From a virus (lineage: Duplodnaviria; Caudoviricetes): DNA of 64,000 nt. The notes under the pieces are model-generated. The model saw only the letters and a program-made list of their open reading frames with translations, had not been told where the DNA came from and did no database searches. Location of the stretch: positions 31,914-95,913 of IMG/VR virus record IMGVR_UViG_3300033075_001508, one strand, 5' to 3'. The position numbers were made by a program, and so were the translations under genes. Of this stretch, positions 25,180-43,835 are shown in pieces; position 1 is the first letter of the stretch; the number at the start of each line of letters is the position of its first letter.

Positions 25180-25192
25180 TTGTCCTTATCCT

Positions 25193-26608
25193 TTACTGCC
25201 AGGTGTATGCGGTGGTCCTAGAATACCGTCCTGAATGAGTGGACCAAGACTCCTCGTCTTGCTCCAAGAAAACCTGCGTGCCGACTGGAATCAGGCTTAA
25301 CACAACTGCGTCGGTGTCGGGTGCCGAAGGCGTGTAGCTCTGAGTTTTCGCACGCATCACCACTTCGATTTGAATGGTTCGCTTCTTTGTCGATACTGTT
25401 CCGATGTCTTGCAAAACAGGGCCGGCCGCGCGACCCAGAACCGGAATTGCCGCAAAGATGTCCGTTGCGTGATGATTAACCACGGTGATGCTTTCGCTGA
25501 TAGCACCAACGGTGTCAGTGTTTGCTCGGTCGTCGTATTCGTACTGATACGAAATTGTGCCAGCCTTCTCGTTTTTCCCGATAGATGTGTTGACCGGCTG
25601 AGTGTGTAGTGTCACTCCGCTTATCGTTGTGGCCCTGGAGTACAACTCAGGCTGTACGTAGGTTGTCCACTTGGCGGCAGCGTTTGTGTACCGACTACTT
25701 GTCAGAGTCCTGGTACTGGTGTTACGAACCTCAAGGCCAGTGATGGTGCCCTCAATACTTACGGTTGTTCGTCCTTCTTGATTAGTGCGAACATTGACCG
25801 TATATTCATCGAGAGCAGGAGACTCATCGCCAGGGTCGTAACAAAGCCAGGTTTCGGTAACTTGATAGGTGCCACCAAGTTCGTTCACGTTCTCCGTGCG
25901 AACATAATTAAAGGCTTGAAGGCTGTCGTTGTCTAACACATCCTCAGCAACCATTCGAGCGTTGGAGATTCCCAAACCTAGCACGTTTAGAACATACAGA
26001 CGGGCCTGCTCCCACGCTTCTCGTTCAAGCTCGTTTTCTTCGGTATAGAATCGTTTGCCGGTAGCCGAAACGGAATGGGTCAGCCGCCAGGTGTTGTGCT
26101 TCTCGTCAGCCTGTTCGATGTTCCATTCTTCGTTTGCCTTGGAAATCTTGTAGGTGTCGAGGTTGCCGGTCTCCTCGAAAGGGTACATCTTGTCGGCTTC
26201 AAGGGTGATGATGTAATCGCACTTATCGACCCAACTCACCCTGCCCTGCCCGCCTTCCGGAAACTCAATTCTCTTGACGCGAGGGTTGCATTTCATTGGC
26301 GTGGAGCCGCCAACAGACTGGATTTCTAGCGTCAACCCTTCATTCTTAAACAGGCTACGAATAGCTTCCTGCTTACGAAGAATGGCTGCAAGCTTGTCAT
26401 CCGCAGAAATCGTCTCGTCCGGAGGGTAGTCCGAGAGCGCCCAGAAGGTTCCGTCCGTTTTTGGAGAACCTCTATCCGCGATTATCGTGCCCTTGAGAGT
26501 GATAACGAAGATGGTCCCGATAATCTTGCCGTCGTCGGTTGTTTGGTATTCTTTGGTGATGGAGACGAACGGGGCTGGGATGAGCTTCTTGTTGTCGTAT
26601 ATGACCAT
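25193..26608 (-). CDS. Tail protein (distal tail/baseplate-like)
   Basis: 471-aa beta-rich ORF between the tape measure and the tip protein. Confidence 0.65.
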   Translation of the reverse strand: MVIYDNKKLIPAPFVSITKEYQTTDDGKIIGTIFVITLKGTIIADRGSPKTDGTFWALSDYPPDETISADDKLAAILRKQEAIRSLFKNEGLTLEIQSVGGSTPMKCNPRVKRIEFPEGGQGRVSWVDKCDYIITLEADKMYPFEETGNLDTYKISKANEEWNIEQADEKHNTWRLTHSVSATGKRFYTEENELEREAWEQARLYVLNVLGLGISNARMVAEDVLDNDSLQAFNYVRTENVNELGGTYQVTETWLCYDPGDESPALDEYTVNVRTNQEGRTTVSIEGTITGLEVRNTSTRTLTSSRYTNAAAKWTTYVQPELYSRATTISGVTLHTQPVNTSIGKNEKAGTISYQYEYDDRANTDTVGAISESITVVNHHATDIFAAIPVLGRAAGPVLQDIGTVSTKKRTIQIEVVMRAKTQSYTPSAPDTDAVVLSLIPVGTQVFLEQDEESWSTHSGRYSRTTAYTWQ

Positions 26609-27174
26609 CAGATTCCGTGGGTGTATAAGCGTACCGAATCGTCTACAAACCCAACAGCGTCCGGAATGACGAACGGAATTGTGCCAGAAGTGGGTGCCGC
26701 ACCATGGACGAACAAATTAGTCGATAGGTTTCCAGTGGTGCCGGGTCCGCAAATGTAAAGCGGACAAGCCGCAGCTGGATTACGGCGCAAGAACAAATTC
26801 ATGCCGCGAGATACGGGTATACACCCTTCAGTTGTGCCAGAACCTTCGATAAATAGCGTGGCCGACTGGGTTGCCCCAGACTGCTCATTCCACACCACTA
26901 GGTCCATTCCAAGAGAGACGGGATTGCCACAGCCCTCCACGAACAGATTCATCCCTCTTTCGAGGTCGTCGGATGTTGGACCTAAAACTGTGAGCGGCAG
27001 GACGCCACTGAAGATGTTTCCCTCTCCGCTCGCGCATTGAACAAACAAATCGACGCCGCCAGTGAGTCCACTGTTACTGACGCCATGAACAACCAGGTCG
27101 ACTCCACCGTTTAATTCGGATGGCTCGTCAACCTGGATGAATAACACGAATCCTTTATTTAGTGCTGTGGGCAT
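26608..27174 (-). CDS. Putative tail protein with short beta repeats
   Basis: Repeated (G)xxL(F/V)(V/I)xG units. Confidence 0.6.
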   Translation of the reverse strand: MPTALNKGFVLFIQVDEPSELNGGVDLVVHGVSNSGLTGGVDLFVQCASGEGNIFSGVLPLTVLGPTSDDLERGMNLFVEGCGNPVSLGMDLVVWNEQSGATQSATLFIEGSGTTEGCIPVSRGMNLFLRRNPAAACPLYICGPGTTGNLSTNLFVHGAAPTSGTIPFVIPDAVGFVDDSVRLYTHGI

Positions 27175-27198: not shown

Positions 27199-30100
27199 TT
27201 ACTCAAGGTTCAAACCGGCGTCTGGGAACTTGTCTCGGAACACCTGGTTGAGGTACTCTTTGATTTTCGCCACAGCCATCTTCTCGAAGGCCGGGGTAAT
27301 CGACGCCAACACTTCCGCGCCGTTGAAGATGAACTCGTGGGTTTGACGTCCAACGACTTCCAATCTGGATGGGAAGTTCGACAAGGCTCGGGACAACTCT
27401 TGAGCGACAGTGCCGAAGGCCGTCATGGCATTCACCAACCCGCTCGAAGACGGACCGAACCCATTCATGGCCGCAGCCAATTCCGGAGCCCCGTCAATCT
27501 TGCTGGAGGTTTGAGCAGGAAGGGTTCCCGTCTGCTGACGTTGTGCCGGCGTTCCACCAACTGGTCCACCAGAAGCGAATCGTTGCACGTTGGCGTAGCC
27601 ACCCATGTTCTGGATAGCTCTCCTGCTTAACACGAACTCGCCAGGTGTCAACAATGCCGGGACATTATCTCGGTCTCCAACCCCACCGACACGACCACCT
27701 TCTGCGAAACCCGCGACTCCCGTCCCGATTAGCCCGCCTAGGCCACGGTTATTCAGGAACCTCTGACGAGCAATCCGGCCCCGAATTTGGGTCTCGAACA
27801 GATTCTGCTGGCTGAGCCGGTCACGACTTTGTTGGCGACCTTGCAGCAAGCTTTGGTTGACACCCGCTTGCGTCTGGCTATCAGCACGGCGTAGCCCGAA
27901 TGCCGCAAACGCATTCCCTCGCTGAACCTCAAGTTGACGTTCCCGCAAATTAGATTGGGCACCGTAGTCGCGACGAACAGACGAGCGCGCGTCGGCAATG
28001 GACACCGACTGACGTTGTAGTGCGTCTCGCTCTTCACGAGTCAATCGGCGTCCCAATCGTTCTTCCTCGCGAGCTACCGCTTGTTCGAAGAGCCTGTCTC
28101 GCGTACGTTCGTTGAAGGCTACACTACCAAGCGCGCCAAACGGGTCGGCGGCTGCTAAACGGCCGTATAAACCGCTACTTGAAATCAAATGCGTAGCTTC
28201 GCGGATGTCAGCTATTTGCCGTGCCACTACCATTCGGCGTGCATGCGCTCGGTCCGCTTCTTCAGCAATAGGCGTGTTACCCGCAATCCATTCCTCTTCC
28301 TCCGCTCTTCGGCGTCTACTTTCTTCCTCTTCCAGTGCTGTCGCGTGGGCGTCTACCGCCCTGCTACGAAAATCGAAGAAGCCACCGCCTGCGAGGTAAA
28401 CGGGACCGTTCGCGTTGTTGATACGGTTGAGCAGGGAACGGTTGTGTTGTGCCGCCTCGCGACGAACCACAAATTCACCCGGACTCAGCATCGCCGGGAC
28501 CGTGTCCGTGCCTTGTGCGCGGAACGTCCGTGGGTCCGGAGTCCTACCCCCAAACCGGAATGGCGTAGCCCCGACCGAGCCGCCAGACGCAAACCCTGTA
28601 GGCGCAGGCGCAGGGGAGTCTGTAACAGGATTGAACGCTCGGTAGATTTCAAGAAACTCATTGAACCGACGAACTTTCAAGAGGAAGTCGCTCGGACTCA
28701 ATCTGTTTGTCCCTCTTTCGTGAAGCTGTAGCTCTCCTGCGTAGGTGCGAAGCAGTCTGGTGCTAGAGTCTTCTCCGACATAGTCGTTACGGTTGTACGC
28801 CATCCGGATGCTCTCCCACTCCATCCGGTTGGAGAACAAGTCTTGTAGCTGGGAGTACAACCGGAGGTTGTCATGCCGTCCCAACAGGTCAACACCGCTA
28901 CTCATCGACTGAAGCGAAGCCACCTCCCGCTCGGTTTCGCTTAATGCCTGTATCCTCGCACTCAACCTTTCCTGCTCACCCATGAAGCTTGGCGGAAGGA
29001 AAGTTGCCGGGTCTGTCAATTCGATGACGGACTGAACGACAGCAGCATCTCGTATCGCCCGTAATTCCGCCAACTGGTTCACAACTGGGCGCACACTGGT
29101 TCTCGCGCCAGTACGCTCTTCCAAGCGCCTGGTCGCCGCTTCTTCTTCTGCTGCCGCTCGCCTTCTGCCTTCAGCTATCTCGGGAGTGTCATCACGACGC
29201 AAGATGGACTCGGCGAGCCAGACTGCCGGACGTAAACCTTCGGCCACTAAGTCTCCACCAACACTGACCGTGCTGGCCGTGAAATCCGTTACGGTGCCGA
29301 GAACTTCTCCAACTGGGCCACGAACATCCTCTCGTACACGACGGCCGGAATCGGCAAAAGTGCTGCGAAGGCCAGACTCGTCGCTGAAGCGGGCTCTGCC
29401 GGTAAGGGAGGAAAGCCCGCTCAAGCCAAGGTCGGCTAACGCCACTCCAAATCCTAAACCGCCTGTACCATAGCCAACGGCAAGGTCGGTTGCCGCTCTG
29501 GTTGTTGCCGGAATCGCTCCCCTCTCGGCGGTGTCGCGAATCAAGTTGTAGGTGGTTAATGCCGTTCCACCAATACGGACCGCCCTACCAAACGCGCTAC
29601 CTCGTGCCGCAGGCTCGGGTGCGGGTCTTTCTGGAAGTGGGGTACGACCAGTGCTTGGGCGAGCGGTTACCGCCTCCTCCATGAAGTACCGCTCAAAGGA
29701 ACTGCCTCCGGTTGGAGACGCCGGACGAACCGGACTCAAGGTCGGAGCCGTTCCCGTTCCCCAACCACCAGTAGGGGTCGCAACCGCCAATCTGGACAGC
29801 GACTCGGCCGTAATAGCCGGCGCAGTAGGGGTCCGACCAAACAAACCGCTGAATAATCCTCGAATCGTAGTGCGAGGACTAGAGCTTGTTGCTGGGGTAG
29901 TCGCAGGCGCTGGTGCCGGCGTTGTCGCTGGAGCCCCGAAGCTCGTCCTGGTGAACGGAACCGGAGCGGGCGCTGTTGCAGGAGTTGCTACGCGTCTGGT
30001 GGCATCGTCTGCCCACAACGTACGCAATCTATCCAGGAAACCGCGTCTTGCTGCTGCCGGCGTCGAGGTAGCTGGGGCGGGAGCGGGAGTCGCGACCGGC

Positions 30101-33100
30101 GCAGGCGTTGCCACCGGAGTTGGTCTTGCGGCACGCCATCTATCCAAACCCTCAGTTCCCAACGTGGCTGTGGTTGTCACGCCACGAGGAGTTCCGGTTG
30201 GAGTCGCTGTGCGCAGAATGCGTGCGGCTACATCATCAGCTGTTTCGCCAGCGGCAGGAAGACGACTTAATACTCGGCTGCGAAATTCTTCGGCAACACT
30301 ACGGAGTCCAGGTCTAGAGTCTGCTCTTCCAGTAGCTACGTCAGAAAACAAGTCCGCGAAGCCTTCAGCCCAAATAGACGAAGGCGTGCGATAACGAGCC
30401 TCGATTCTAGCTAACGGCCTTAATGAATCGCGACCCGACAGGTAACGCTCTGCAATCGTTCGGTCGATGCCTGGTCCGCTAGAACTGAATCGCGTAGCAA
30501 GGCCAGCCTCCCTCGCCAGCAGTCGGTCCGCACCGTGTCCAAGTTCGTGGGACAAGACCGTCATAAGCCGTTCGTAACTGTCGATACCGGTTCTGGACAA
30601 ACTGATGGTGCCACTCGTTAGTCCATATCGACCCGTAGTTGTACCCGGCAACGAACTGGTGAGCCGAATTCGGCTGTATAGCGACCTGGTGTCGACCCCC
30701 GTTGCAGAACGGATATCGGCAAGCGCCCTACGAATGGTGTCAGAGTTCAGAACGAACCCGCCACCTTCCAAGTAGACGGGGCCGCGAGAATTATTCACCC
30801 TTTGCAGGAGAGCAGAATTCGCTCTCGCGCTTTCGCGGTTCACCACAAACTCGCCAGGGGTGAGCATTGCGGGAACAACATCAGTGCCGCGAGGACGAAA
30901 CATCGACCCGGCCACGCCACCGCCAGCCCTGGTCTCAACTGGGAGACTGAGAGCGGTGCGTGTCGAAGCAATCGCGCGAGCCGTTTCCGCCAACTCGTTG
31001 TTGACGGCCGTTATGCGTCCCGGGAGGCTCTCCAGGCTGTTTGCCGCTCCATCAAAGGCTTGAAGTGCCCTAGTAATGGATTCTCCGTTTAACGACGACA
31101 ACGAAGATGTATCAAAACCAAGCTCTTGCAATCTTCCAGCAGCCGCATTGCGACGACGTACAGCGTCACCAGCAACGGTTCCTGCCGCGCCGCCGACTTC
31201 AGCCTGGATAGCTCTTTGCAGATGCGGAAGGAGGAACTCGACCTGTTCGCCAAATCCACGCGTGCGACCACGGGCCGGGTCGTTTCCAACGTTCTGTTGA
31301 GTCCTCCTGATAATCGAATTGCGTTGCTCGACGTTAAGGTTCGAGAACACCCCCTCTTGCAGAAACGAGTTCAGTCTGCCTTGCAAATCGGTAGACAGAT
31401 TTCGCCCAGAGAAGAAGTTGTTCGGTGCGGTACCACTTAGAGCGCCGCGAAGGTTGTTACGAGCATATCTGCCACCATCGACTTGAACGCCTTGCGTGTT
31501 GGTGAAGACAGAATTGTTTTCGAAGTAGGTGCGGAACAAATCGAGATTGTTACGTGCAAGTTCAGCCTGGCTGTTGTTTCGAATTCCCAATCTGCCAAGC
31601 AGGTCTCTCTGCGCACCTTGTGCGGTCAACCTACCACGGTCTGTTTCCAGTTGGCCTCGGCGGTTGTTGAGAGAAATCAGGTTGTTCTGACCCAGTTCAC
31701 GAGACAGTCTTGCAAAGAACGTATCGTGTTGCCGCTGAAGATTGTCCCTTATTTGTGTCGCAGACTCACGTTGTGCGGCAGCAGATTCGCGCAAAGCTGT
31801 TTCGGCTGTTCTGAGGTTGCCAATAAGCTCTGCTTGCAAACGGTCACGCTCGCCAGTTTCCGACGCGGTCAAGCCGGCAGCTGCCCCGTAGGTGTTACGG
31901 AACAACTGGTCAACAACATCATTTCCGGTTCGTCCACCCAACAATGGATAAGATGCGGAGCCAATGCTTCGCCCGACATCGCGAGCCGAGCTAATTTGCT
32001 CAGAACTGTAGCCAGCAAAGTTTCCTTGTTGATTCGCCCGAATGAGCAGGGAAAGTCCACGGAGCAGTTCGGACTGTTGCTCTGGATTCGACGTCGCAAC
32101 TCTCTCAACAAACGACAGGCGGGCCTGACCTTGCTGCTGAAGGTGGTTTAATCGCTCCTGGATAGCGGTGTTTCTTTGCGAGGCGTCGGCCAGGTTTTGC
32201 AAAGCCCGGTTCGCATCGGACGCCCGCTGTCTCAGATTGACCAGTTCGCGGGTCGCGCTTTCAAATGCAGGTCCTTGGCCTCCTGTTGCCTGGAAGACCT
32301 GCTGTTGACGCTCCGCAGCGTCTTGAATCCGCGAATACAAACCGCGAAGCTGTCCGCCAATTGCGGTCGGGTCTGTCGCAGCAGCGCCACGCAGCCCACT
32401 CAACCTCTCCTGCCGAGCTTGGAAATCGGATTGCAGGAAAGAAATGGGTATGCGCGAGGTTGCATTCGAGTCGAACGAATTCTGTCCGGCAAACTCGACT
32501 TGAGTGCGATAGGTTTGAATCCTTGCCGTGTTCGCCCTGTCCAGGGTTTCCGCAACCTGGCTCATCCTGGCCGAAAACTCAGCCACGCCAGTGATGAACT
32601 TGTTCGCCTGCTCTTCGAGTTGCTTGGCGATTCTCGTTCCGGCTTCCTTGAGCGGGTCGGCAAAAGGCGCAATGAGTTTGTCGGCAAGCTTCGTGGCGTC
32701 AACCTGAAGCTCACGGTAAATGTTCTCGATGCCGCCCGACTTGGTCAACTGATTGAGTTGGTTGACCACCGTGTTGATGACCGACCCAATCTGCTGGTTG
32801 CCCTGAACAACAGCGTCCCCACCAAATGCAGTCGTCAACGCGTTGCGAACAGATGTGCCGAAATCTTCCTCGCTCGAAGGGCTGTTCGAGGCAACCTGCG
32901 AGAGGATACTCGGGAGAAGTTGAGCGGCTCGTGTAGCCACCGAACCTGTTTCGTACAGGCTTGCGCCGGCGTTACCACCTACAGCACGGATTGTGCTGAG
33001 CGTCTCAAACACCCCGCTGTCGTTCCTGCCAAGTTGGGTTAGACGGCCCGCGTTCGCCGAGACCTTCACGGCCCCGAGGGTGCCGTTTAGTACATCAGCC

Positions 33101-36100
33101 AGGGCGTCAACGCGAGTCTGCAACAAGCCCATGCTATCGCCAGCCGACTCCACCGCTAGAGCAAACCGTCCAAACGTGTTGACGTTTCGCTCTTCACCAC
33201 TACGGGCTCGGGCGTCTTCTTGCGCGAACCTTGCAGACTTCTGAGCCTCCTGGATGACCTTTTCAAACTCTTTGGTTACCTGAGCAAGCGAAAGCCCACG
33301 AATATCCGCTAAGACGCGGAGCATTGCCTGGTTAAGGCCAGCCCCGCCCGAAACCAACCGTCGCGAAAGAGACTCGACCGAGGCAGACAGGTTGCTCTTG
33401 CCAATCTCCTCAGCTTGTTTGTTCAGTGCCTGGGCAATGCTAGGCAAAGAACCGCCAAAGTCTTGTCGCAGACTTTTAGCTCTCGCGGCTTGCAAACCGG
33501 CAAGGTCCTTGCTACCCACCTCTTTGAGAAGTTTCTCTTCAGTTTCCTTTTGAATCGACTGAAACGCGGACAGGGCGGCTGCGGCCGTACCGGGAGCGGC
33601 GTTGCCACCAGCCTGAGCCAGTGTGGCAATCTTGTCGGCAAAATCTGTAATTGCCTTATTGATTTTCGCCTGGCGGATATCCTTTTCCGCTTCATTCAAC
33701 GAGGTTACGAACCCGTAGACTGCCCCACCAAACGCTCCGATAACACCACCGAGCGGTCCGGCAATCGAAGCCCCGATTGTTCCACCAAGAACGGCACCCT
33801 GAAGCCCACCAGAAATACCCTTTCTAGTGCTGTATCCGCCAGAAAGAAATGCTCCCGTTTCTCCGCGAGTCGCTGCCTCGTCGGCGGAACCGGACTCCTT
33901 TTCAATCATTCCGGATAAAAGTGGGAGACCAAACAGGGTGGCACCTCCAAGACCAGTTCCGGTAAAAGCAGACCCCAGCCTGGAAATTCCGCGAGCGGTA
34001 GCTCCAATGCCGCGAGTAAACTTGTTGGAGTTTGGAGAATTGCCGTACTGCGTCAACGGGGTCGAAAAGAACTCGCCTACCCGGTCGGTAACTGGCGACA
34101 ACCGGTTTTGCAGCCTGGTAAACCAGTACGCGCCAGGAGCGTTTACGCCACGGCTTGCCGCCTCCACTACAGTATCTTGCAGCCCAAGAATTCGTCCTTG
34201 ATTATTGCGAACGATTTTCTTTTTGGAGTCCTTCATCGCCTCCGTGACTTGCTCGGTCGCAATATTGTTGCGTTCGTAAGCCGAGATAGTCGGATAGAGT
34301 TTGCTCAGCAACTCCTTTTGCGCAGACAACAACTCGCGACCAATTTGAGCTTCCTGGCTCTTGGTCACACGAGCAGTAATCGCACCTTTTGTTTCCAAGC
34401 TAAGCAAGTCGCTTCCACCACGACGACTAATCTCTGGCTGGATTCTCTTTTGGGACTGGCGTTCAAGCAGAGCCTCGAAAGAGGCGGTGACGTTTCCGCC
34501 AGCGTTTGTGGTGGGCGTCTGAACTGGAACCCTTTCGCCCTTGTCGTTTGTGTAATATTCGATTCTGCCAGGCTTTGGTAGAAGCAACGCCTCTTCTTCT
34601 TGCTTTGCAAGTTGACGCGCACGAAGTCCGGCCGCCCCAGCTTGTTGTCGAGCCAAAAGAGGGTCGACAGAAGGAGTAAGTTCGATAAGACCAAGTCCGC
34701 CTTCTTCTACGAGCGGGTTATTTGCAAGAGAGCCATCTGGCCTACGATACGCTTGTCCGGAACGCTTGGCTTCACGCTCGCGAATACGCTCACGGAACCT
34801 GTCTCGGTAGCTTGCATCCTGTAGACTTCTGTTCTGATACTCCTCTTCCTTGGTTGGAAGAACGACAGGGTCAGGAATCAAGCCAAGCCCGCTTCCGCCC
34901 AAATCGAGGTTCCGAATATCTTCCCTGCTTAATCCTTGCTGACGCAAACGTCTGTAGGCGTCAAGTTGTGCCTGCGCTTGACGAGCTTCTTCTTCCGCCC
35001 TGGTGAACCGAGTGTCACCTTGAGAGCTTCGGAACCTAAATGGCTTCCTCTTTTCCCCGGAAAACGCGGTTGGTCTGGCTCCGGATGCAGGAACATAGTC
35101 TTCTGGCAAGAATCCAGGCGCACCGTATCTGTGGCTCTCATCCGTAAGCAGGAGAGGCTTCTTGACAATCTCAAACTCCGCGTCTACGGCGGGGTCTGGA
35201 TACCTTTCCCGAGTACGAGTCGACTCATCGAGTCGGACTCGGTAGGGCACCAGGCTTGTTGCGTCCGGAAGATACGTAAGACGCTTCAAGCCATCATCGG
35301 GGCCAGTTTGTGCAGCGCGTAACGACAGAGTAGCCGCTTCCCGCAAAGGCATGGTGGTTACCACCGGAGAGGCTGTCGCCTTCTTTGCACGCATTCGCTC
35401 CAAAAGCGAAGCTGTCTTGCTCGAACCACCCTTTCCGGTTAGTCCTCTCTTCTTCCGGTACTCGTCCACTGCCGCTTGTTCAGCTGCAAGCTCTTCCCGT
35501 TTGATAACCGATTCTTCTACTTCACTGGCTTTCAGTTCGGTTCCACCCGCAAGGATTGGACTTTCCGAACGAGCGTTGGGCACTACAGACAGGAAGCTCG
35601 GTAAATCGTCGTCATCGCTTCCGCCTTCTCCCTCTTGACGCTGAACCTTGCCAGTTCTGAGATACTCCTGAAGCTTATCATGACCAGATTTAACTTGATT
35701 CCTGAAAATCGCTGTGCGGGCAAACGACCCTAGGACTCGCTTAAACGCTGCCTCGGCTCCTTCGTTCGCTTTGGGAGATATTTGGCTCTCATCAAATGTG
35801 CCAACCACATTTTTGATGCCGCGATAAATATGTTGTTCAGCCCTGTCGGGAGCATAAGCACTTAATACCTGATACTCCTTTTCGTTCCTTACTCTCTCAA
35901 CCTCCTTGTTGATTACCTCAAGATACTTCGGCTGATTGAGTCTTGCCTTTTCCTGCTCAGTAAACGCGCCGTCGTACTTACCAGTTTCTCGAAACGTCAA
36001 CGCTTGGCTCGCGTCACGAGCAGTGGCATTCATCACCTGTGGAGCAGTATCTTTAAAACCAATTTGCTCCTCAAATCGCTTCATCGCATCTTGCAATTGC

Positions 36101-38040
36101 TCGGCCGTTTTAATAATTCCAGCAAACGCTTTTGCGCCGGTCTTCTCAAAATCAACGAAAACGCCAACGATACCATTGGCTGCATCGCCCAATTTAGCAA
36201 TCTCTTTGAAAATATCTGGGAAGTCCTCCCGCGAAAGCTGGTTGAGACCTACAGGAGTAGCAGACCCAGAAGCTAACCGGATTGGTCCATGCAACCCAAC
36301 CATTCCGCCCGTATTATAACCCTGGCCGAAGTTCATCCGGTGAAGGCGTGCCGCCCCAATACGAGCAACCGCCCGCTTGTTGAGAACGTACTCGCCCGGG
36401 GTCAGATAAGCAGGGACAGTGTCGTGGTCACCTTCCCCTGGAACAAGGCCTCCGGTCGCCAGCCGCCTTGGAGCGTTTGTGGTTGTACCGTAGACTCCCC
36501 TGCTCACCGCATTGGCGGCGAATGTACCGATTCCCTGGAACACCTTGATGGTTGCCAAGGTGGTCAAAATCGGCAGAAGCGGACGAGCGAAGTCTAAAAG
36601 TTGCGCGAAGCTCTTCGCAATGTTCAGTATGTTGTCGGCGAGAGACTTGAAGCCCTCGGACTGCGTAAGAGCCCGAAAGAATTTGAGATACTCTTCCCTG
36701 ACCTTGGCGGTCTTGTTGAGCAACCCATCCTGGGCCTTTTCAGCCTGGATTTGCAAAGTGATTTGGCCGGTCTGGGCAACGTTCACCGCCTTCTGGGCTT
36801 CCGCGAACTGCTGAATAAGGGGAATAACCTTCGAAATCTGGCGGTAGCCACCCAACTCTTCGATGATGGCCGAATATCGTGTGTCCGTTGGACGAAGGCC
36901 TCGCAAACCCTCCGAAATACGCTTGACCGCCTCGAACGCCCCAACAAACTGATTCTGGAGATTCGCGCCCGTTCCGTTTGCTAGACGAGACGCTTCTTCC
37001 CGAGTGTAACGCAGGTTGACCTGGAGAGCCTTCAAGGCGTCTACAGTTTCGGAACGTTGGAGACGGGTAAAGATGGTCCGTAAACCAGTCGAAATAGTTT
37101 CGGCCGACTCACGAGTGGTCGAACGAACGGCGGTAAACAATCCTAAAAGCTCGTTGAGGTCGCCACCTGTTTGCTTGAACGCTCCACCAGACTTTCGGAT
37201 AACTTCAACTAAGTCAGACGCTTCCGTTGCAAATTGTCCAGCCACAGCGGCGACGGAGCCTAGGTTCCCTTTTAGATTGCCGACATTTTTGTCGAACTGT
37301 TGGATGATGGCGATGGAGCCTTCCAGGATTTCATTCATCGACCCAAAGTTCGGGGACAACGAAGCCTGAGCAACCGCCTCTAAAGCGACAGATGTGTCGT
37401 CAGCGGCAATGCCGGCTTGCCGAAACAAGATGGCCGCGTTCGCCAATTCTTTGCTGGACACGCCCAGGCTGGTCGACAACCTGTTGATTGTGGACTCAAT
37501 TGCCTTGATTTTATTTGGGGTATCACCGGACACCTGAGCAATCTTAATCATCGACTGCTCAAACTGTATCGCTTCGCCGACGCCCGACCGTACGCCTTGG
37601 ACAAATCGGACCATAGCTCCAGCAGCAACCGTAAATGCTACGAATCTACGAGCAGCTAAACCGGCCGTAGAGCCGAACTGAGCAATCGCGCTGGAACCAA
37701 GCTGCGCATGCTCTCTAGCGACCTTCAGGGTCTGGTTGGCTGTTGCGACGGCTGTGTTGAGCGAGCCAACGGACGCGGCGGACGTACGGGCTCCTTGTCC
37801 AATGCCGCCAATACCCTGCGTCAACGCAAAGGTAGAACCTTGGACTTCTCGCATGTTGGCACGCAACGAATTCATACGAGAGTTCAGGTCATCCAGTGTA
37901 CGTAGGGAAGCAGTCGACACTCGCACGTTGACGTCGATGCCTTGGCTCTTGAAGGCATGATGAACCTGCTGTACCGCTTCCCGAAGTCCAACAACTCGCT
38001 GAATGTAAAGCTGAGAGTTGATATTGAATGGCTGCGACAT
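27199..38040 (-). CDS. Tape measure protein (3613 aa) with accessory domains
   Basis: N-terminal TP901/PhageMin_Tail-like region (FEQSMIKIAQV...RESAETISTGLRTIFTRL), long helical stretches, Gly-rich hydrophobic segments; follows the tube and chaperone genes. Confidence 0.93.
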   Translation of the reverse strand: MSQPFNINSQLYIQRVVGLREAVQQVHHAFKSQGIDVNVRVSTASLRTLDDLNSRMNSLRANMREVQGSTFALTQGIGGIGQGARTSAASVGSLNTAVATANQTLKVAREHAQLGSSAIAQFGSTAGLAARRFVAFTVAAGAMVRFVQGVRSGVGEAIQFEQSMIKIAQVSGDTPNKIKAIESTINRLSTSLGVSSKELANAAILFRQAGIAADDTSVALEAVAQASLSPNFGSMNEILEGSIAIIQQFDKNVGNLKGNLGSVAAVAGQFATEASDLVEVIRKSGGAFKQTGGDLNELLGLFTAVRSTTRESAETISTGLRTIFTRLQRSETVDALKALQVNLRYTREEASRLANGTGANLQNQFVGAFEAVKRISEGLRGLRPTDTRYSAIIEELGGYRQISKVIPLIQQFAEAQKAVNVAQTGQITLQIQAEKAQDGLLNKTAKVREEYLKFFRALTQSEGFKSLADNILNIAKSFAQLLDFARPLLPILTTLATIKVFQGIGTFAANAVSRGVYGTTTNAPRRLATGGLVPGEGDHDTVPAYLTPGEYVLNKRAVARIGAARLHRMNFGQGYNTGGMVGLHGPIRLASGSATPVGLNQLSREDFPDIFKEIAKLGDAANGIVGVFVDFEKTGAKAFAGIIKTAEQLQDAMKRFEEQIGFKDTAPQVMNATARDASQALTFRETGKYDGAFTEQEKARLNQPKYLEVINKEVERVRNEKEYQVLSAYAPDRAEQHIYRGIKNVVGTFDESQISPKANEGAEAAFKRVLGSFARTAIFRNQVKSGHDKLQEYLRTGKVQRQEGEGGSDDDDLPSFLSVVPNARSESPILAGGTELKASEVEESVIKREELAAEQAAVDEYRKKRGLTGKGGSSKTASLLERMRAKKATASPVVTTMPLREAATLSLRAAQTGPDDGLKRLTYLPDATSLVPYRVRLDESTRTRERYPDPAVDAEFEIVKKPLLLTDESHRYGAPGFLPEDYVPASGARPTAFSGEKRKPFRFRSSQGDTRFTRAEEEARQAQAQLDAYRRLRQQGLSREDIRNLDLGGSGLGLIPDPVVLPTKEEEYQNRSLQDASYRDRFRERIREREAKRSGQAYRRPDGSLANNPLVEEGGLGLIELTPSVDPLLARQQAGAAGLRARQLAKQEEEALLLPKPGRIEYYTNDKGERVPVQTPTTNAGGNVTASFEALLERQSQKRIQPEISRRGGSDLLSLETKGAITARVTKSQEAQIGRELLSAQKELLSKLYPTISAYERNNIATEQVTEAMKDSKKKIVRNNQGRILGLQDTVVEAASRGVNAPGAYWFTRLQNRLSPVTDRVGEFFSTPLTQYGNSPNSNKFTRGIGATARGISRLGSAFTGTGLGGATLFGLPLLSGMIEKESGSADEAATRGETGAFLSGGYSTRKGISGGLQGAVLGGTIGASIAGPLGGVIGAFGGAVYGFVTSLNEAEKDIRQAKINKAITDFADKIATLAQAGGNAAPGTAAAALSAFQSIQKETEEKLLKEVGSKDLAGLQAARAKSLRQDFGGSLPSIAQALNKQAEEIGKSNLSASVESLSRRLVSGGAGLNQAMLRVLADIRGLSLAQVTKEFEKVIQEAQKSARFAQEDARARSGEERNVNTFGRFALAVESAGDSMGLLQTRVDALADVLNGTLGAVKVSANAGRLTQLGRNDSGVFETLSTIRAVGGNAGASLYETGSVATRAAQLLPSILSQVASNSPSSEEDFGTSVRNALTTAFGGDAVVQGNQQIGSVINTVVNQLNQLTKSGGIENIYRELQVDATKLADKLIAPFADPLKEAGTRIAKQLEEQANKFITGVAEFSARMSQVAETLDRANTARIQTYRTQVEFAGQNSFDSNATSRIPISFLQSDFQARQERLSGLRGAAATDPTAIGGQLRGLYSRIQDAAERQQQVFQATGGQGPAFESATRELVNLRQRASDANRALQNLADASQRNTAIQERLNHLQQQGQARLSFVERVATSNPEQQSELLRGLSLLIRANQQGNFAGYSSEQISSARDVGRSIGSASYPLLGGRTGNDVVDQLFRNTYGAAAGLTASETGERDRLQAELIGNLRTAETALRESAAAQRESATQIRDNLQRQHDTFFARLSRELGQNNLISLNNRRGQLETDRGRLTAQGAQRDLLGRLGIRNNSQAELARNNLDLFRTYFENNSVFTNTQGVQVDGGRYARNNLRGALSGTAPNNFFSGRNLSTDLQGRLNSFLQEGVFSNLNVEQRNSIIRRTQQNVGNDPARGRTRGFGEQVEFLLPHLQRAIQAEVGGAAGTVAGDAVRRRNAAAGRLQELGFDTSSLSSLNGESITRALQAFDGAANSLESLPGRITAVNNELAETARAIASTRTALSLPVETRAGGGVAGSMFRPRGTDVVPAMLTPGEFVVNRESARANSALLQRVNNSRGPVYLEGGGFVLNSDTIRRALADIRSATGVDTRSLYSRIRLTSSLPGTTTGRYGLTSGTISLSRTGIDSYERLMTVLSHELGHGADRLLAREAGLATRFSSSGPGIDRTIAERYLSGRDSLRPLARIEARYRTPSSIWAEGFADLFSDVATGRADSRPGLRSVAEEFRSRVLSRLPAAGETADDVAARILRTATPTGTPRGVTTTATLGTEGLDRWRAARPTPVATPAPVATPAPAPATSTPAAARRGFLDRLRTLWADDATRRVATPATAPAPVPFTRTSFGAPATTPAPAPATTPATSSSPRTTIRGLFSGLFGRTPTAPAITAESLSRLAVATPTGGWGTGTAPTLSPVRPASPTGGSSFERYFMEEAVTARPSTGRTPLPERPAPEPAARGSAFGRAVRIGGTALTTYNLIRDTAERGAIPATTRAATDLAVGYGTGGLGFGVALADLGLSGLSSLTGRARFSDESGLRSTFADSGRRVREDVRGPVGEVLGTVTDFTASTVSVGGDLVAEGLRPAVWLAESILRRDDTPEIAEGRRRAAAEEEAATRRLEERTGARTSVRPVVNQLAELRAIRDAAVVQSVIELTDPATFLPPSFMGEQERLSARIQALSETEREVASLQSMSSGVDLLGRHDNLRLYSQLQDLFSNRMEWESIRMAYNRNDYVGEDSSTRLLRTYAGELQLHERGTNRLSPSDFLLKVRRFNEFLEIYRAFNPVTDSPAPAPTGFASGGSVGATPFRFGGRTPDPRTFRAQGTDTVPAMLSPGEFVVRREAAQHNRSLLNRINNANGPVYLAGGGFFDFRSRAVDAHATALEEEESRRRRAEEEEWIAGNTPIAEEADRAHARRMVVARQIADIREATHLISSSGLYGRLAAADPFGALGSVAFNERTRDRLFEQAVAREEERLGRRLTREERDALQRQSVSIADARSSVRRDYGAQSNLRERQLEVQRGNAFAAFGLRRADSQTQAGVNQSLLQGRQQSRDRLSQQNLFETQIRGRIARQRFLNNRGLGGLIGTGVAGFAEGGRVGGVGDRDNVPALLTPGEFVLSRRAIQNMGGYANVQRFASGGPVGGTPAQRQQTGTLPAQTSSKIDGAPELAAAMNGFGPSSSGLVNAMTAFGTVAQELSRALSNFPSRLEVVGRQTHEFIFNGAEVLASITPAFEKMAVAKIKEYLNQVFRDKFPDAGLNLE

Positions 38041-38177: not shown

Positions 38178-39008
38178 TTACGCCGCGTTCAAGTCGTCAA
38201 TGAACTCAACGAAGTCGACCTTGTACTCGCCAGATTCCGTGAGCAAGTTTCCTTCGTCGTCAACCAGTTCGCCCTTCTCGTTGATGAGCCGCCCCTTCTC
38301 GTCCACTCGACGGCCCTTGGCGTCAACCAAGTCCTTCGTCTTGGGGTCGATGAGATGGAGGTCACCCTCGCGAGCGAAACCGTACTTGAGCAGAAACTTG
38401 TTCTCTGGGAGGCCGGCCTCGAAGTTGTCGTCCAAACCGTAGAGCAACTGCCCTAACGTTTGTGCCGCCTTTTGGGCAGCCGGTTCGACGGCTCGATTGA
38501 CGTAGTCTTCGACGCTCTTGAAAAACGGCTTGCCACCATCTGTATACACCGTGCAGGAGGATACGTAGTAGTTAAACCGTGCCTGTTCTGCTTGAGCCTC
38601 GGCCGTATTGATGTCGAGAGAATTGCGGTCGATGAGAAGTTGGCGAAGCTCAAATCGGTCACGGCGCATTTGCACCGCAAGCTCCCTAGCTTCAGACAAC
38701 TTGATGCCGCCCTTGGCGAGCTTCTTCTCTGTTTGCAGGAGAGACTCGTTCAGGCTGTCCCACTTGGCCTGCTTGGCGTCATCCCACAATCCCTGCTTGC
38801 GCAAGACATTCTCAAGGGCCGGCCGGGTAATGGCGTTAGGTTCGCCCGTATCCGGATTGGGCCTTACCAGACGACAGAACTCGCCGCTGTAGACGATTTG
38901 TCCCTGCTGTTGTGTCTTCAGGTCGGGTCGCTTGACGGCCAATTCGATATCTTTGCCGTCGACCTCTACTTTGAACACACGCTTGTTGTCAAACTTGACT
39001 TCAGACAC
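38178..39008 (-). CDS. Putative tail assembly chaperone
   Basis: Immediately upstream of the tape measure; C-terminal D/NxxG hairpin repeats. Confidence 0.5.
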   Translation of the reverse strand: MSEVKFDNKRVFKVEVDGKDIELAVKRPDLKTQQQGQIVYSGEFCRLVRPNPDTGEPNAITRPALENVLRKQGLWDDAKQAKWDSLNESLLQTEKKLAKGGIKLSEARELAVQMRRDRFELRQLLIDRNSLDINTAEAQAEQARFNYYVSSCTVYTDGGKPFFKSVEDYVNRAVEPAAQKAAQTLGQLLYGLDDNFEAGLPENKFLLKYGFAREGDLHLIDPKTKDLVDAKGRRVDEKGRLINEKGELVDDEGNLLTESGEYKVDFVEFIDDLNAA

Positions 39009-39055
39009 TGAACTACTTCCTCCTTTGTTGTTCCTTACCGATTAACTGATAATAC

Positions 39056-39430
39056 TCACTTAGAGTTTGGGTCGACCGGTTTTAGAACGGTTTGATAGCC
39101 ATGCCACCAACACTCGTATTGTTGAAGCTCTTGCTGGATGGCACGAATCTGATTGTTTCCGTTGTTCAACACCTCTGTGCGAGCTTCGACCCAGAGGTCT
39201 CGCCACGCCAACTCATTCTCCGTCAATTCGGACTCGTCTTTACCGTGTCCCCAAAGACTGCCAAACAACGCCTCAAATCGAGCCAACGCGCCAATAAAAG
39301 ACGTAGTCAACTTCTTCTCCAGAATCTTCTGGAGCCGACGCCGACTTCCATCTCCATATCTGCGGGCTTGTCCCTCTTGAGACAGTTTGTTCTGCTGCGA
39401 AGCCGCAGCGAATTGGTCTCTCCCGTTCAT
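39056..39430 (-). CDS. Hypothetical protein (tail module)
   Basis: 124-aa helical ORF within the operon. Confidence 0.65.
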   Translation of the reverse strand: MNGRDQFAAASQQNKLSQEGQARRYGDGSRRRLQKILEKKLTTSFIGALARFEALFGSLWGHGKDESELTENELAWRDLWVEARTEVLNNGNNQIRAIQQELQQYECWWHGYQTVLKPVDPNSK

Positions 39431-39433
39431 TCA

Positions 39434-40525: not shown

Positions 40526-40538
40526 CCCTTAGAATCCT

Positions 40539-40572
40539 AACAAATGGGGACCGAACATGTCCGGCCCCCATT
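40539..40572 (-). terminator. Terminator-like hairpin after the tail tube gene
   Basis: Minus strand AATGGGGGCCGGA-CATG-TTCGGTCCCCATT followed by TGTT. Confidence 0.7.
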
Positions 40573-40587
40573 CGATATTACCCACTA

Positions 40588-41622: not shown

Positions 41623-41666
41623 TTAGTTTCTCTCCTGTTGATTGAACCTTGTGTGGTCAACAGGAG

Positions 41667-41674
41667 ATACACCG
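41667..41674 (-). promoter_or_regulatory. CGGTGTAT candidate late promoter
   Basis: 45 nt upstream of the tube start, preceded by an A-tract on the - strand. Confidence 0.65.
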
Positions 41675-41702
41675 GGATTTGACCAACCCGTTTTTTTTGG
41701 TT

Positions 41703-43300: not shown

Positions 43301-43301
43301 T

Positions 43302-43832
43302 TTACCCTACTCTCTCCCAGAGGCAAACGAAGTATCTGTCTTGAATGATGTTGGACACGTCGTTTGGCTCGCCCGCCAACTTGTATCGCCGTGGACCCAG
43401 GCCGGCAAGAGTCTTCTGGTAAAGAAGGTAGTCGCACTTCTCCACCTTGGGCCAGTCCTTGATGAAGCCCTTGGTTTGCAGGAGAGCATCCGGCTGACGA
43501 TTGCCAAGCAACAACCCGGGAACTGGAACCGTGAATTTCTTCGGATTCAGTTCGCACAGCAATTCCACATCTTCCGTGGTCTCTGTCGCAATTCGTCCAC
43601 GTCCGTTGCAGTATGGGCAAATCGACCCATCCGCGAATTCAATCGGACCTCCCGCTCGATAGCGGTTGCTCGACTTCTCGCTCATCGGGTCATACAAACA
43701 GTTCGGACAAGACTCGTATCGGCTGGGCGGGTAAACCAGCGTACAAGTCTTGCCAAGTTCTGTAATGAGGTCGTCCAACCCATCCTGGATGATGGCCTTG
43801 ACCTCATCGTCAATACTAAAAAGTTGCCCCAT
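43302..43832 (-). CDS. Putative head closure protein with Zn motif
   Basis: Position after the adaptor; CPNC...CPYCNGRG. Confidence 0.55.
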   Translation of the reverse strand: MGQLFSIDDEVKAIIQDGLDDLITELGKTCTLVYPPSRYESCPNCLYDPMSEKSSNRYRAGGPIEFADGSICPYCNGRGRIATETTEDVELLCELNPKKFTVPVPGLLLGNRQPDALLQTKGFIKDWPKVEKCDYLLYQKTLAGLGPRRYKLAGEPNDVSNIIQDRYFVCLWERVG

Positions 43833-43835
43833 TCA

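Follow-up and report, generated by a model that had tools for sequence, protein, structure and literature searches.

A conserved junction module repeated four times in the giant tape measure protein of an uncultured 96-kb phage

The tape measure protein and its gene

Why should a single tape measure protein (TMP) contain the same short module four times, at irregular distances? This question is raised by a virus of the class Caudoviricetes known only as an IMG/VR record (IMGVR_UViG_3300033075_001508), whose genome comprises 95,913 bp (95.9 kb). The window analysed here is a 64,000-nt stretch of that record (positions 31,914 to 95,913), and all coordinates below refer to it. The TMP gene reads through uninterrupted, and genes for terminase (54707-56788) and portal (52431-54647) lie upstream of it on the same strand. 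Residues 184-398 of the protein matched the Pfam family PF10145 (PhageMin_Tail; E 5e-18, 66.1 bits against a cut-off of 33.2) and residues 146-460 matched the NCBIfam family TIGR01760 (tape_meas_TP901; E 2e-21, 76.6 bits against a cut-off of 28.8). With both families above their curated cut-offs, the open reading frame is a TMP of the TP901/PhageMin_Tail type. Eight of the ten PHROG families that it matched are annotated as tail length tape measure protein; TIGR01541 was not among its NCBIfam matches at E <= 1, and PF10145 was the only Pfam match in the entire protein. None of the 10 neighbouring genes had a PHROG match and none of the eight that were put to Pfam had a Pfam match, so that no protease candidate was recognised among them by these searches.

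The gene and the segments of its product, from the N-terminus to the C-terminus, are as follows.

27199..38040, minus strand: TMP gene (P0001), a single open frame of 3,613 aa
36487..38040, minus strand: N-terminal conserved ruler core, residues 1-518, with BLASTP matches from 33-52 of 54 relatives
36295..36486, minus strand: module 1, residues 519-582, with flanks LATGG and YNTGG (profile E 2e-24)
34441..36294, minus strand: variable segment 1, residues 583-1200, containing a stretch once described as sigma-like
30946..34440, minus strand: conserved block 2, residues 1201-2365, with BLASTP matches from 6-23 of 54 relatives; no PHROG match
30748..30945, minus strand: module 2, residues 2366-2431, of the subtype F-x-P-R-G-T-D...G-P-V-Y-L-x-G-G-G (profile E 6e-18)
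30121..30741, minus strand: putative zincin-like cassette, residues 2434-2640, with HELGH at about 2498-2502
28597..30120, minus strand: unique Pro/Thr/Ala-rich and other sequence, residues 2641-3148; no PHROG match
28339..28596, minus strand: module 3, residues 3149-3234, with N-flank FASGG and C-flank YLAGGG (profile E 3e-18)
27730..28338, minus strand: variable charged segment, residues 3235-3437, with runs of E and R in the translation; no PHROG match
27541..27729, minus strand: module 4, residues 3438-3500, with flanks FAEGG and FASGG (profile E 9e-16)
27202..27540, minus strand: C-terminal tail-tip end, residues 3501-3613, conserved in 39 relatives

Within conserved block 2 a hydrophobic stretch rich in Gly and Ala lies near residues 1405-1450, with a long polar stretch behind it; the only 19-aa windows of the TMP with a hydropathy of at least 1.5 began here, at residues 1416 and 1430. 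The position of the C-terminal 113 aa agrees with that of the tip-docking TMP ends of lambda and T5 (PMC10721106, PMC10038345), and module 4 together with this end has the same layout as in lambda gpH.

A module of about 65 aa with glycine-rich flanks

The module consists of a core, D-T-V-P-A-x-L-T-P-G-E-F-V, and a short helix. In generalised form it is an acidic residue, V-P-A-x-L-x-P-G-E-F-V and a short helix ending in L-x-x-x-N; P-A-x-h-x-x-G-E-F-V and a helix with G...L...N are present in all four copies. The strict core pattern matched the TMP exactly four times (residues 540-552, 2387-2399, 3179-3191 and 3458-3470), with one match in each of the four ranges where a sequence-only reading of the DNA had placed a copy (residues 527-554, 2370-2427, 3149-3220 and 3444-3471). 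A profile HMM of the kind which that reading had proposed was made from 144 module sequences and run against all six frames of the complete 95,913-bp genome. It found the four TMP copies (E 2e-24 to 9e-16) as the sole copies, the other three rows being noise (E >= 6.9). The spacing of the copies within the TMP is irregular and ranges from about 215 to 1,780 aa.

On both sides the core is accompanied by a flank motif, aromatic-A-x-G-G-x-V. All the short motifs that had been noted around the modules were located: LATGG at residue 527, YNTGG at 575, FASGG at 3150 and again at 3488, and FAEGG at 3445. Copies 2 and 3 have the variants RAGGG, YLEGGG and YLAGGG, and they do share the extension ascribed to them, which ends in YLEGGG in one and YLAGGG in the other. 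Sequence logos of 1,015 pattern-defined instances showed the flanks as Gly-rich linkers on both sides of the core. Flank motifs also occurred alone, without a core, in 54 copies as opposed to 4.9 expected by shuffling.

The module was not detected by Pfam or NCBIfam, and no paper naming it, or describing TMPs with several modules, was found in the literature searched, most subscription journals lying outside that search. It is an ancient, unnamed junction module of TMPs. Taken by itself, the identity of the module together with its role at segment borders, described below, can be held with high confidence.

Occurrence in other phages

The suggestion that the motif occurs in other phage TMPs was borne out. 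When copy 2 was compared with 50,697 phage records by tblastn, all 16 records that matched did so under a feature annotated as TMP. Searched against PDB sequences, the module profile matched only two chains at E <= 1 and both are TMPs, namely Douge gp16 (E 8e-12, two copies) and lambda gpH (E 9.4e-6). Module 1 matched residues 754-790 of lambda gpH by BLASTP (E 2e-5), and hhalign aligned the module with gpH residues 730-789 (probability 96.1%, E 3e-9). Module 1 also matched phrog_24, the family of the lambda protein, at profile positions 933-992 (E 5e-6), which are positions shared with lambda; module 4 matched phrog_24 and phrog_934, both of them TMP families. In TM4 gp17 one module was found at residues 700-769 (E 2.6e-11).

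Lambda gpH has the same module once (residues 730-789), and an aromatic-A-T-G-G motif flanks it on either side. It differs from the TMP studied here in having one copy in 853 aa rather than four in 3,613 aa, three of which are internal, and in its N-terminal family, which is TMP_2 in lambda and PhageMin_Tail here. The Pfam family Tape_meas_lam_C covers gpH residues 627-701 and not the module. TM4 gp17 (1,229 aa) and Douge gp16 (1,699 aa) contain one and two copies, those of Douge being internal, as compared with four here, and their core differs (S-I/M-L-A-R...N-G-E-F).

Among cluster representatives the module was present in 17,567 at E <= 1e-3, and the best 150 of these measured 2,123-7,872 aa and had 4-10 copies. 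In IMG/VR candidate stretches it was confirmed in 521 of 588. In ordinary TMPs, as in lambda gpH and those of a Burkholderia phage and TM4, the module is single and usually close to the C-terminal end, and giant TMPs such as the one described here have 2-10 copies. In 60 complete ORFs the copy number correlated with TMP length (r = 0.71), and all six ORFs shorter than 1,500 aa had a single copy. The module is common to phages of Proteobacteria, Actinobacteria and Cyanobacteria.

Two further ideas were considered and rejected. A short TMP is not the ancestor of the N-terminal core, because the short TMPs of IMG/VR share the module only and not this core. Nor did we find genes split at modules: in one locus (L022) two module-bearing ORFs adjoin each other, and the break between them is not at a module. 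As regards the ends of individual ORFs, P0086 and P0122 have no initial Met and seem to be truncated at the 5' end, P0187 starts within the core of a module, and about 60 residues precede a module in P0094.

Conserved blocks end at modules

In the family of 54 giant relatives each module closes a conserved block and is followed by lineage-variable sequence. Of 3,335 C-terminal ends of homology blocks, 57% fell in the interval from -20 to +80 aa around a module end, as against 10.3% by chance (200 randomisations, maximum 11.7%), and for internal blocks only the figures were 52% of 628 and 10.4%; part of this enrichment follows from the module being an island of conservation, and relatives compared in pairs are not independent of one another. 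Starts of blocks were not enriched at starts of modules (6% compared with 10%). The sequence behind module 1 illustrates the pattern: 41 of the 54 relatives matched at residues 551-600, then 11, and 0-4 from residue 651 onwards. Residues 2641-3148 were covered by 0-1 of the 54 relatives up to residue 3100 and by 6 at residues 3101-3150, residues 2641-3156 had no BLASTP match among about 630 relatives and locus ORFs, and residues 3251-3400 of the charged segment were matched by 2-4 of the 54. The subtype represented by module 2 ends the equivalent conserved block in P0004, P0006, P0007, P0010 and P0016.

The proposal that modules are joints at which segments are swapped agreed with the comparison of relatives, in which borders are conserved and the segments right behind modules differ or have been exchanged. 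P0021 and P0023 are 100% identical up to residue 613, then unrelated for about 800-900 aa and then 92% identical; these close relatives have swapped a segment right behind a module. It might be thought that the modules are nothing but scars of such events, homology patches with no biochemical role at which TMP genes recombined or were fused end to end. The segment swaps fit this explanation, as does the position of the module near the C-terminus of ordinary TMPs, whereby internal copies could mark old gene ends. However, four residues were invariant and about a dozen nearly so in 144 diverged copies, and all four copies in the TMP scored E < 1e-15, which amounts to purifying selection on each copy. 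Moreover, lambda and actinophages still share the module, although the remainder of the protein can no longer be aligned. We regard pure scars as the least probable of the explanations considered here.

Content of the segments between modules

Recognisable enzymes between modules are rare, and most inter-module sequence has no recognisable domain. None of the four inter-module segments had a PHROG match. One candidate is the cassette that starts directly after the C-flank of module 2. It contains HELGH and, further on, E-G-F-A-D-L-F, that is, HExxH plus a downstream Glu, and both elements recur in four homologous cassettes that occupy other slots (P0150, P0107, P0023 and P0078). In three or four of the five proteins the cassette stands behind a module or a lone flank motif. 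A zincin immediately after copy 2 had been predicted from the DNA, and as far as the motif and its place are concerned this is correct; the Pfam matches were below cut-off in every case (SprT-like, E 0.042, 14.2 bits against 25.6; Peptidase_M48, E 0.086, 13.1 bits against 20.3; M66, E 0.38, 10.1 bits against 20.6) and comparison of the segment with PDB sequences gave only noise. It is the motif that makes the cassette a putative zincin, no curated zincin family having matched above its cut-off.

For the stretch in variable segment 1 that had been called sigma-like this name found no support: no sigma-70 region family or any other family matched it in Pfam (E <= 0.1), NCBIfam (E <= 1) or PHROGs. 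That different cargo follows the modules holds for some proteins. In P0016 an ADP-ribosyltransferase domain (residues 588-734) lies behind module 1 (484-539); precomputed Pfam annotation shows such a domain in 2 of the 54 relatives. In TM4 gp17 the experimentally active peptidoglycan-hydrolase motif mt3, placed at about residues 796-910 from the published 114 residues centred on W853, begins about 30 aa after the module, so the order of module and enzyme is that of module 2 and the zincin-like cassette. To speak of the tail lumen as an effector-delivery device is an over-generalisation: a Pfam scan of 11 giant relatives found the TMP domain and one weak Aminopep match, and otherwise no effector family in any of the 11.

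Two groups of proteins invite comparison. One is that of the polyvalent proteins, which phages and conjugative elements encode (Iyer et al. 2017). These large multi-domain proteins are injected, contain zincin-like peptidases and ADP-ribosyltransferases, and are proposed to be processed (PMC5512222). Their phage examples are head-packaged, and the word 'tape' does not occur in that paper (0 occurrences). They are defined by several unrelated effector or enzyme domains in one injected polypeptide; we found one zincin-like cassette here and the ADP-ribosyltransferase in those two relatives. Sle1-type effectors of contractile injection systems (CIS), which are related to TMPs, combine a TMP-like N-terminal part with a variable C-terminal functional domain (PMC13277306). 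In contrast to both groups, recognisable effector domains are rare in this TMP and its relatives.

Much of the inter-module sequence is probably plain ruler. The cultured Nodularia phage 2AV2 (vB_NpeS-2AV2) has a module-bearing TMP of 3,404 aa and a tail of 795 nm. Even embedded 'cargo' appears to behave as ruler during assembly, since deletion of the mt3 motif shortens the tail of TM4 by about 20 nm.

The module as a proposed flexible joint

AlphaFold2 gave little indication of a stable fold. For module 4 (79 aa, alignment of 144 sequences) the pLDDT was 60, with flanks below 50, and for module 4 with the C-terminus (183 aa, 28 sequences) it was 58. In the C-terminal end two helices were predicted (model residues 103-124 and 153-174; block-mean pLDDT 59 to 82), with the highest values (76-82) over the last helix. 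We infer from these models that the module is not an autonomous fold and would act as a flexible joint. A hydrophobic stretch before the module, as in lambda and T5, was rejected as a general rule: it is true of first modules only (21.5%, compared with 4.5% at random, 0.5% for middle and 0% for last modules).

Such a joint might be recognised by a partner or by other TMP chains, and it need not be cut. The module could be a structural node where 3 or 6 TMP chains come together or hold on to the tube wall, the chaperone or the hub, so that a long ruler is kept in register and the variable sequence is a fast-evolving spacer. The rise of copy number with TMP length is in keeping with this, as are the very long tails of phages with giant module-bearing TMPs, of which 2AV2 is an example, and the scarcity of domain matches between modules; a module predicted to be unfolded as a monomer is also what one would expect of a partner-pairing strand. 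Against it, the spacing is irregular, and the region is absent from the resolved parts of the two cryo-EM structures: lambda gpH has no resolved density at about 690-817 (PMC12617516), and of Douge gp16 only residues 1658-1699, outside the module region, have been modelled. A node also leaves unexplained why enzymes start right behind a flank motif and why conserved blocks end, rather than begin, at modules. On balance we think this explanation rather unlikely.

Alternatively, the module might serve after ejection to dock on a factor of the host or the phage, which could be a chaperone of the periplasm, a protein of the membrane or the cell wall, and might aid refolding or insertion of the segments. 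With its strongly conserved non-globular core within disorder it resembles a linear motif. To judge by the title of a 2015 study by Cumby et al., injection by HK97 reportedly needs host factors connected with the TMP. Furthermore, gpH* of lambda exits from the tail and makes a channel across the periplasm (PMC12617516). But the envelopes of Proteobacteria, Actinobacteria and Cyanobacteria, whose phages all have the module, are very different, so a common host partner is unlikely, and docking in the host seems to us improbable.

Precedents for cleavage

We favour a flexible joint at which the TMP would also be cut, and the reason lies in lambda. Lambda gpH loses a C-terminal piece of about 14 kDa through a cut in a glycine-rich region, which yields gpH* and gpHC, and this takes place only after the tail has been assembled (PMC12617516). 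The lambda module is situated in the unresolved N-terminal part of gpHC, where it adjoins the glycine-rich cut zone and precedes the gpI-docking helix of the C-terminus (PMC12617516, PMC10721106). A cut before A734 would, by calculation, give 79.8 kDa and 12.5 kDa. The published estimate for the cut (about 78 kDa, about residue 710; PMC12617516) tells against a cut at the module, as it falls upstream of the flank motif by some 20 residues.

T5 offers a looser parallel. Its TMP, pb2, is cut after R1127 during tail morphogenesis into pb2* and pb2C, which parts the ruler from a C-terminal piece that is muralytic and is retained in the tip (PMC10038345). A-E-G-G follows the site directly (R|AEGG), and these four residues also occur in the N-flank of module 4. 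As a homologue of the module pb2 was rejected: it has no module core by any profile test, failing both module profiles, PHROG co-membership and hhalign (probability 0.06%), and is not a member of the module family. The link to T5 is therefore a four-residue resemblance. Relatives of pb2C among the 120 matches listed were all at least 95% identical. The accessible part of the P1 virion paper gives no TMP cleavage site. For TM4 gp17, processing is only suggested in the paper describing it.

How might such a cut be made? One answer is that the module cleaves itself: assembly of the TMP chains would bring the core's invariant Asp and Glu together, these would cut the flexible flank, and cleavage would thereby be tied to completion of the tail. 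D27 and E37 of the module alignment are indeed invariant in the 144 copies, and Gly-rich flanks are available on both sides. A phage tail appendage protein is known to cleave itself in an Asp/Glu-dependent manner. The timing of the lambda cut, after assembly, is also as expected. On the other hand, the lambda copy has no Asp at that position and no fold was predicted. In T5, a role of the host in cleaving tail proteins is reportedly the subject of a 1973 paper by Zweig and Cummings, going by its title. Taken together these points leave self-cleavage a slender chance.

By analogy with lambda gpH, then, cleavage at the modules is plausible. The giant TMP may be a segmented polyprotein which, while whole, would act as ruler for a very long tail, estimated by scaling at roughly 0.5-0.85 micrometres. 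Most likely it would be cut at the modules after the tail is built or on ejection, and would then fall into pieces, a minority of them enzymes, here the zincin-like cassette. As a whole, cut included, we judge this statement to fall somewhat short of an even chance. A bolder version makes the module a general maturation element of TMPs. It would be the determinant of the lambda cut from gpH to gpH*, possibly self-catalysed on chain assembly, and giant TMPs would be tail-lumen polyproteins cut at every module into injected pieces, with cargo slots exchanged like cassettes (zincin-like, ADP-ribosyltransferase, TM4 peptidoglycan hydrolase). We consider this doubtful and offer it tentatively.

Significance

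Where the lambda TMP is cut, by what mechanism, and what its C-terminal piece does have been in question for some 40 years (PMC12617516). A conserved module of about 65 aa beside the cut zone is a concrete element to mutate and map. Lambda, actinophages and cyanophages all share this module, and thousands of giant TMPs of uncultured phages have it in multiple copies, up to ten. Should the modules be cut, the tube lumen of siphophage tails would hold injected proteins that can be exchanged, and delivery would take a route distinct from that of head-packaged ejection proteins. If they are not, the modules would still represent a family-wide architectural rule for the rulers of micrometre-scale tails.

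The tape measure gene and its surroundings

The window makes up the right-hand 64 kb of one contig (95,913 bp), and the genes that matter here lie in one operon on its minus strand:

54707-56788, minus strand: large terminase, upstream end of the operon leading to the TMP ORF
52431-54647, minus strand: portal, in the same operon as the terminase and the TMP ORF
27199..38040, minus strand: gene of P0001, the tape measure protein (TMP) under study, one 10.8-kb ORF of 3,613 aa

P0001 is a tape measure protein. PhageMin_Tail (Pfam PF10145) covers residues 184-398 (E 5e-18), tape_meas_TP901 (NCBIfam TIGR01760) covers residues 146-460, and eight of the ten PHROG families matched are annotated as tail length tape measure protein. 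The gene had no megablast match among 50,697 phage records. All ten TMP neighbours tested (window 21082-27174 and 38178-46195, minus strand) were without a PHROG match and the eight neighbour ORFs also run against Pfam were without a match there (8/8); by sequence, the tail module around the TMP is otherwise unrecognisable. The genome also carries a block of sugar-nucleotide genes (window 2670-15945, plus strand, and 58877-60148, minus strand): three of its ORFs match 'nucleotide-sugar epimerase' (PHROG 540; E 3e-32 to 4e-64), and another matches a glycosyltransferase.

Four copies of a module shared with lambda

The sequence-only reading had described P0001 as punctuated by four copies of a conserved module with xxGG motifs at its flanks, and this description holds. 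A strict core pattern matched the protein exactly four times (residues 540-552, 2387-2399, 3179-3191 and 3458-3470), once within each range in which a copy had been placed, and the flanking motifs are present. In a six-frame genome scan with a 144-sequence profile, copies 1-4 gave domain E values of 2e-24, 6e-18, 3e-18 and 9e-16; there were no further copies, the other rows being three noise rows (E >= 6.9). The C-terminal part is longer in copies 2 and 3 and common to both, as had been noticed, and among the relatives listed this F-x-P-R-G-T-D ... G-P-V-Y-L-x-G-G-G subtype ends the equivalent conserved block. The module HMM that had been suggested was built, and recovers the four copies together with lambda gpH and Douge gp16.

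That the motif occurs in other phage TMPs was likewise confirmed. Lambda gpH has a single module at about residues 730-789, preceded by F-A-T-G-G and followed by Y-A-T-G-G; module 1 aligns with gpH 754-790 (E 2e-5, BLASTP of whole proteins) and hhalign gave 96.1% probability (E 3e-9). All PDB chain sequences were searched with a four-sequence profile and then with the 144-sequence profile. The latter found just two sequences at E <= 1, both TMPs: mycobacteriophage Douge gp16 (E 8e-12; copies at 958-1028 and 1411-1466) and lambda gpH 730-789 (E 9.4e-6). One module each was found in TM4 gp17 (700-769, E 2.6e-11) and in the 940-aa TMP of a lambda-like Burkholderia phage (807-874). Modules 1, 2 and 4 jointly matched 19 PHROG families, 12 of them annotated TMP, mostly near the C-terminal end of the profile; modules 1 and 4 match phrog_24, the family of lambda, at profile positions shared with the C-terminal part of lambda. 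No Pfam or NCBIfam family was reported over the P0001 modules, and Pfam Tape_meas_lam_C corresponds to gpH 627-701, upstream of the gpH module.

RefSeq NC_003387 labels TM4 gp17 (L086, the TM4 locus, 3185-6874) 'endolysin'; the protein is the 1,229-aa TMP of PMC1796659. The only strongly hydrophobic windows of P0001 fall inside a Gly/Ala-rich stretch (window 33691-33903, minus strand; residues ~1380-1450) far from all modules, which resembles the glycine-rich hydrophobic part preceding the lambda gpH module.

Both flanks carry one common motif, as seen in logos from 1,015 distinct pattern-defined instances, in which G, E and several core positions are preset by the pattern:

Upstream flank: aromatic position F 38%, L 11%, Y 8%; next A 62%, S 14%, N 10%; then x-G-G-x; following position V 50%, I 27%
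Downstream flank: aromatic position Y 36%, F 25%; next A 35%, N 25%, S 18%; then x-G-G-x; following position V 65%, I 11%

The profile-based alignment of 144 sequences has four invariant positions (D27, G36, E37 and V39), and conservation is at least 90% in about a dozen more. The flank motif occurs 332 times in P0001 and its relatives (55 proteins): 278 occurrences lie no more than 25 aa from a module and 54 stand alone, against 4.9 lone motifs expected from shuffled sequence. AlphaFold2 predicted one short helix for the module (144-sequence alignment; mean pLDDT 60, pTM 0.20). When the C-terminal 113 aa were added (28 sequences), the flanks fell below 50 and the core reached 66-73, and two C-terminal helices were predicted with block-mean pLDDT of 59-82, highest (76-82) over the last helix. 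Our reading of these models is that the module is a linear, conserved element with a flexible linker on each side, and that it would become structured solely with a partner or with the other TMP chains.

Copy number follows protein length

Among 1.84 billion cluster representatives, 17,567 matched a profile of the four copies at E <= 1e-3, 4,355 at <= 1e-10 and 837 at <= 1e-30; the best 150 of the 17,567 are all 2,123-7,872 aa long with 4-10 matched stretches each. In IMG/VR, at least 521 of at least 588 pattern-matched stretches were confirmed as module, and the 80 loci kept have module-bearing ORFs of 568-4,813 aa with 1-6 copies. Copy number correlates with ORF length (r = 0.71, n=60 ORFs complete at both ends): complete ORFs below 1,500 aa had one copy (6/6), those of 1,500-2,500 aa a mean of 2.4 (n=29) and those of 2,500-3,500 aa a mean of 3.2 (n=24). 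At one locus, L022, modules occur in each of two neighbouring ORFs that lie in different frames (7625-12319, 1,565 aa with two copies; 12568-14895, at least 776 aa with one). Either the TMP gene is split here or the assembly has a frameshift, and the break does not coincide with a module.

Variable segments behind the modules

A whole-length search gave 54 relatives of P0001 (2,263-6,288 aa). Every one has modules, with 2-8 stretches each when weak ones of the first profile are included; the larger profile found 212 copies in the 55 proteins at domain E <= 1e-3.

Relatives (of 54) matching along P0001; counts on modules include cross-matches among non-equivalent copies
Residues 1-100, N-terminal end: 33-37
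Residues 101-550, N-core and most of module 1: 48-52
Residues 551-600, end of module 1: 41
Residues 601-650, behind module 1: 11
Residues 651-1200, variable segment 1: 0-4
Residues 1201-2350, conserved block 2: 6-23
Residues 2351-2450, module 2: 30-34
Residues 2451-3100, zincin-like and Pro/Thr-rich: 0-4
Residues 3101-3150, before module 3: 6
Residues 3151-3250, module 3: 25-39
Residues 3251-3400, charged segment: 2-4
Residues 3401-3613, module 4 and C-terminus: 15-43

Despite the cross-matches, coverage collapses directly behind modules 1, 2 and 3. Inter-module regions invariant across relatives, which together with an unprocessed TMP would have spoken against the sequence-only reading, were not found: several segments are matched by 0-4 of 54.

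The cargo proposed for these segments fared less uniformly. The 'sigma-like' stretch after copy 1 was not borne out, the segment that holds it (583-1200) having no match in Pfam, NCBIfam or PHROG. For the zincin after copy 2 the position stands and the family assignment is weak: HELGH, with E-G-F-A-D-L-F later, lies in a segment that starts right behind the Y-L-E-G-G-G of module 2, the Pfam matches are all sub-threshold (SprT-like E 0.042, M48 0.086, M66 0.38) and there was no match in PDB sequences. Residues 2641-3156, a Pro/Thr/Ala-rich stretch and more, had no BLASTP match among the relatives collected. Of the charged helical domain after copy 3, an E- and R-rich stretch behind module 3 is present.

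The zincin-like cassette occupies other slots in four more giant TMPs: P0150 (at 588), P0107 (822), P0023 (1414) and P0078 (1234). It starts directly behind the module C-flank in P0001 and P0078 and ~30 aa behind it in P0150; it is preceded by two lone flank motifs in P0107 and has no module nearby in P0023. Another relative, P0016, has an ADP-ribosyltransferase domain (PF03496, 588-734, E 3.6e-10) behind its module 1 (484-539), and precomputed annotation of the 54 relatives places PF03496 in one further protein. In TM4 the mt3 peptidoglycan-hydrolase motif comprises 114 residues centred on W853 (PMC1796659), so we place its start ~30 aa behind the module-closing R-F-A-G-G-G. In Pfam, 11 giant TMPs (3,811-4,941 aa) matched just PhageMin_Tail (9/11) and, weakly, one Aminopep family. 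The proposed effector delivery is thus true, at best, for a minority of segments. In P0150, residues 1315-1347 gave two sub-threshold SAP-domain matches (E 0.001 and 0.003), which may hint at a DNA-binding insert in a giant TMP.

Modules as segment borders

When the 55 proteins were compared all against all by BLASTP (matches of at least 250 aa), 57% of 3,335 match C-ends fell between -20 and +80 aa from a module end, against 10.3% at randomised positions (SD 0.5, maximum 11.7%, 200 runs). Without the N-terminal block the figures were 52% of 628 against 10.4% (maximum 13.7%), and 33% of 271 distinct, collapsed breakpoints against 10.1% (maximum 17.3%, 500 runs). The protein pairs are interdependent, and match ends will by themselves gather wherever divergent sequence follows a conserved island. 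The informative part is the asymmetry: match N-starts show no enrichment at the starts of modules (6.0% of 1,664 against 10.4%), so blocks end, and do not begin, at modules.

Alignment of P0004 with P0006 breaks off where modules 1 and 2 end and resumes where module 3 starts. P0021 and P0023 have the same sequence in residues 1-613 (100% identity) and are 92% identical in their last ~1,800 aa, up to the end; in the 800-900 aa between, they share just one module-sized match (59%). This middle part looks like a recent cassette replacement that would start ~50 aa downstream of module 1, where a weak second module-like element ends. The suggestion that cargo is swapped at module boundaries is supported by this pair and by the enrichment of block ends. 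At the level of aligned sequence, then, the comparisons show modules as segment borders and swap points; this part of the earlier interpretation stands, and its effector delivery is the part that does so for few segments at best. Pure recombination scars are unlikely to account for the modules, because every copy is conserved.

Are the modules processing sites?

According to PMC12617516, the lambda fragment gpHC remains in the virion, gpH residues 818-849 are resolved and about 690-817 are not, and cleavage is estimated from ~78 kDa to be near residue 710. The lambda module sits within the unresolved part, and cleavage directly ahead of A734 would yield 79.8 kDa and 12.5 kDa; these data are compatible with cleavage at the flank and do not require it. 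In T5, pb2 is cleaved behind R1127 (PMC10038345), and A-E-G-G comes next, the same four residues as in the N-flank of P0001 module 4. Since no module core was detected in pb2 (module profiles, PHROG co-membership, hhalign), this is a resemblance and not homology. For TM4 gp17 processing has been suggested only (PMC1796659). Putative processing at the modules would be the likeliest mechanism, held tentatively; its nearest rival, a structural or registration node that stays uncut, is somewhat less likely.

Giant tape measures as rulers

The tail of vB_NpeS-2AV2 measures 795 nm (PMC6293099, Table 1) and its annotated TMP gene of 10,215 nt encodes 3,404 aa; the related TMP of Nodularia phage kac65v151 (3,282 aa) has two module cores (884-933, 957-989). 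Giant TMPs that bear modules are thus true rulers. In the kac65v151 protein (locus L083, 9349-19197) the two cores are ~70 aa apart, with Y-A-S-G-G at about residue 1075, and the profile matches begin at the core, leaving the usual N-flank uncovered. Embedded domains count as part of the ruler, because deletion of mt3 in TM4 makes the tail ~20 nm shorter (PMC1796659). With a scaling of 0.15-0.23 nm per residue, we infer that the tail of the phage studied here would be ~0.5-0.85 micrometres long.
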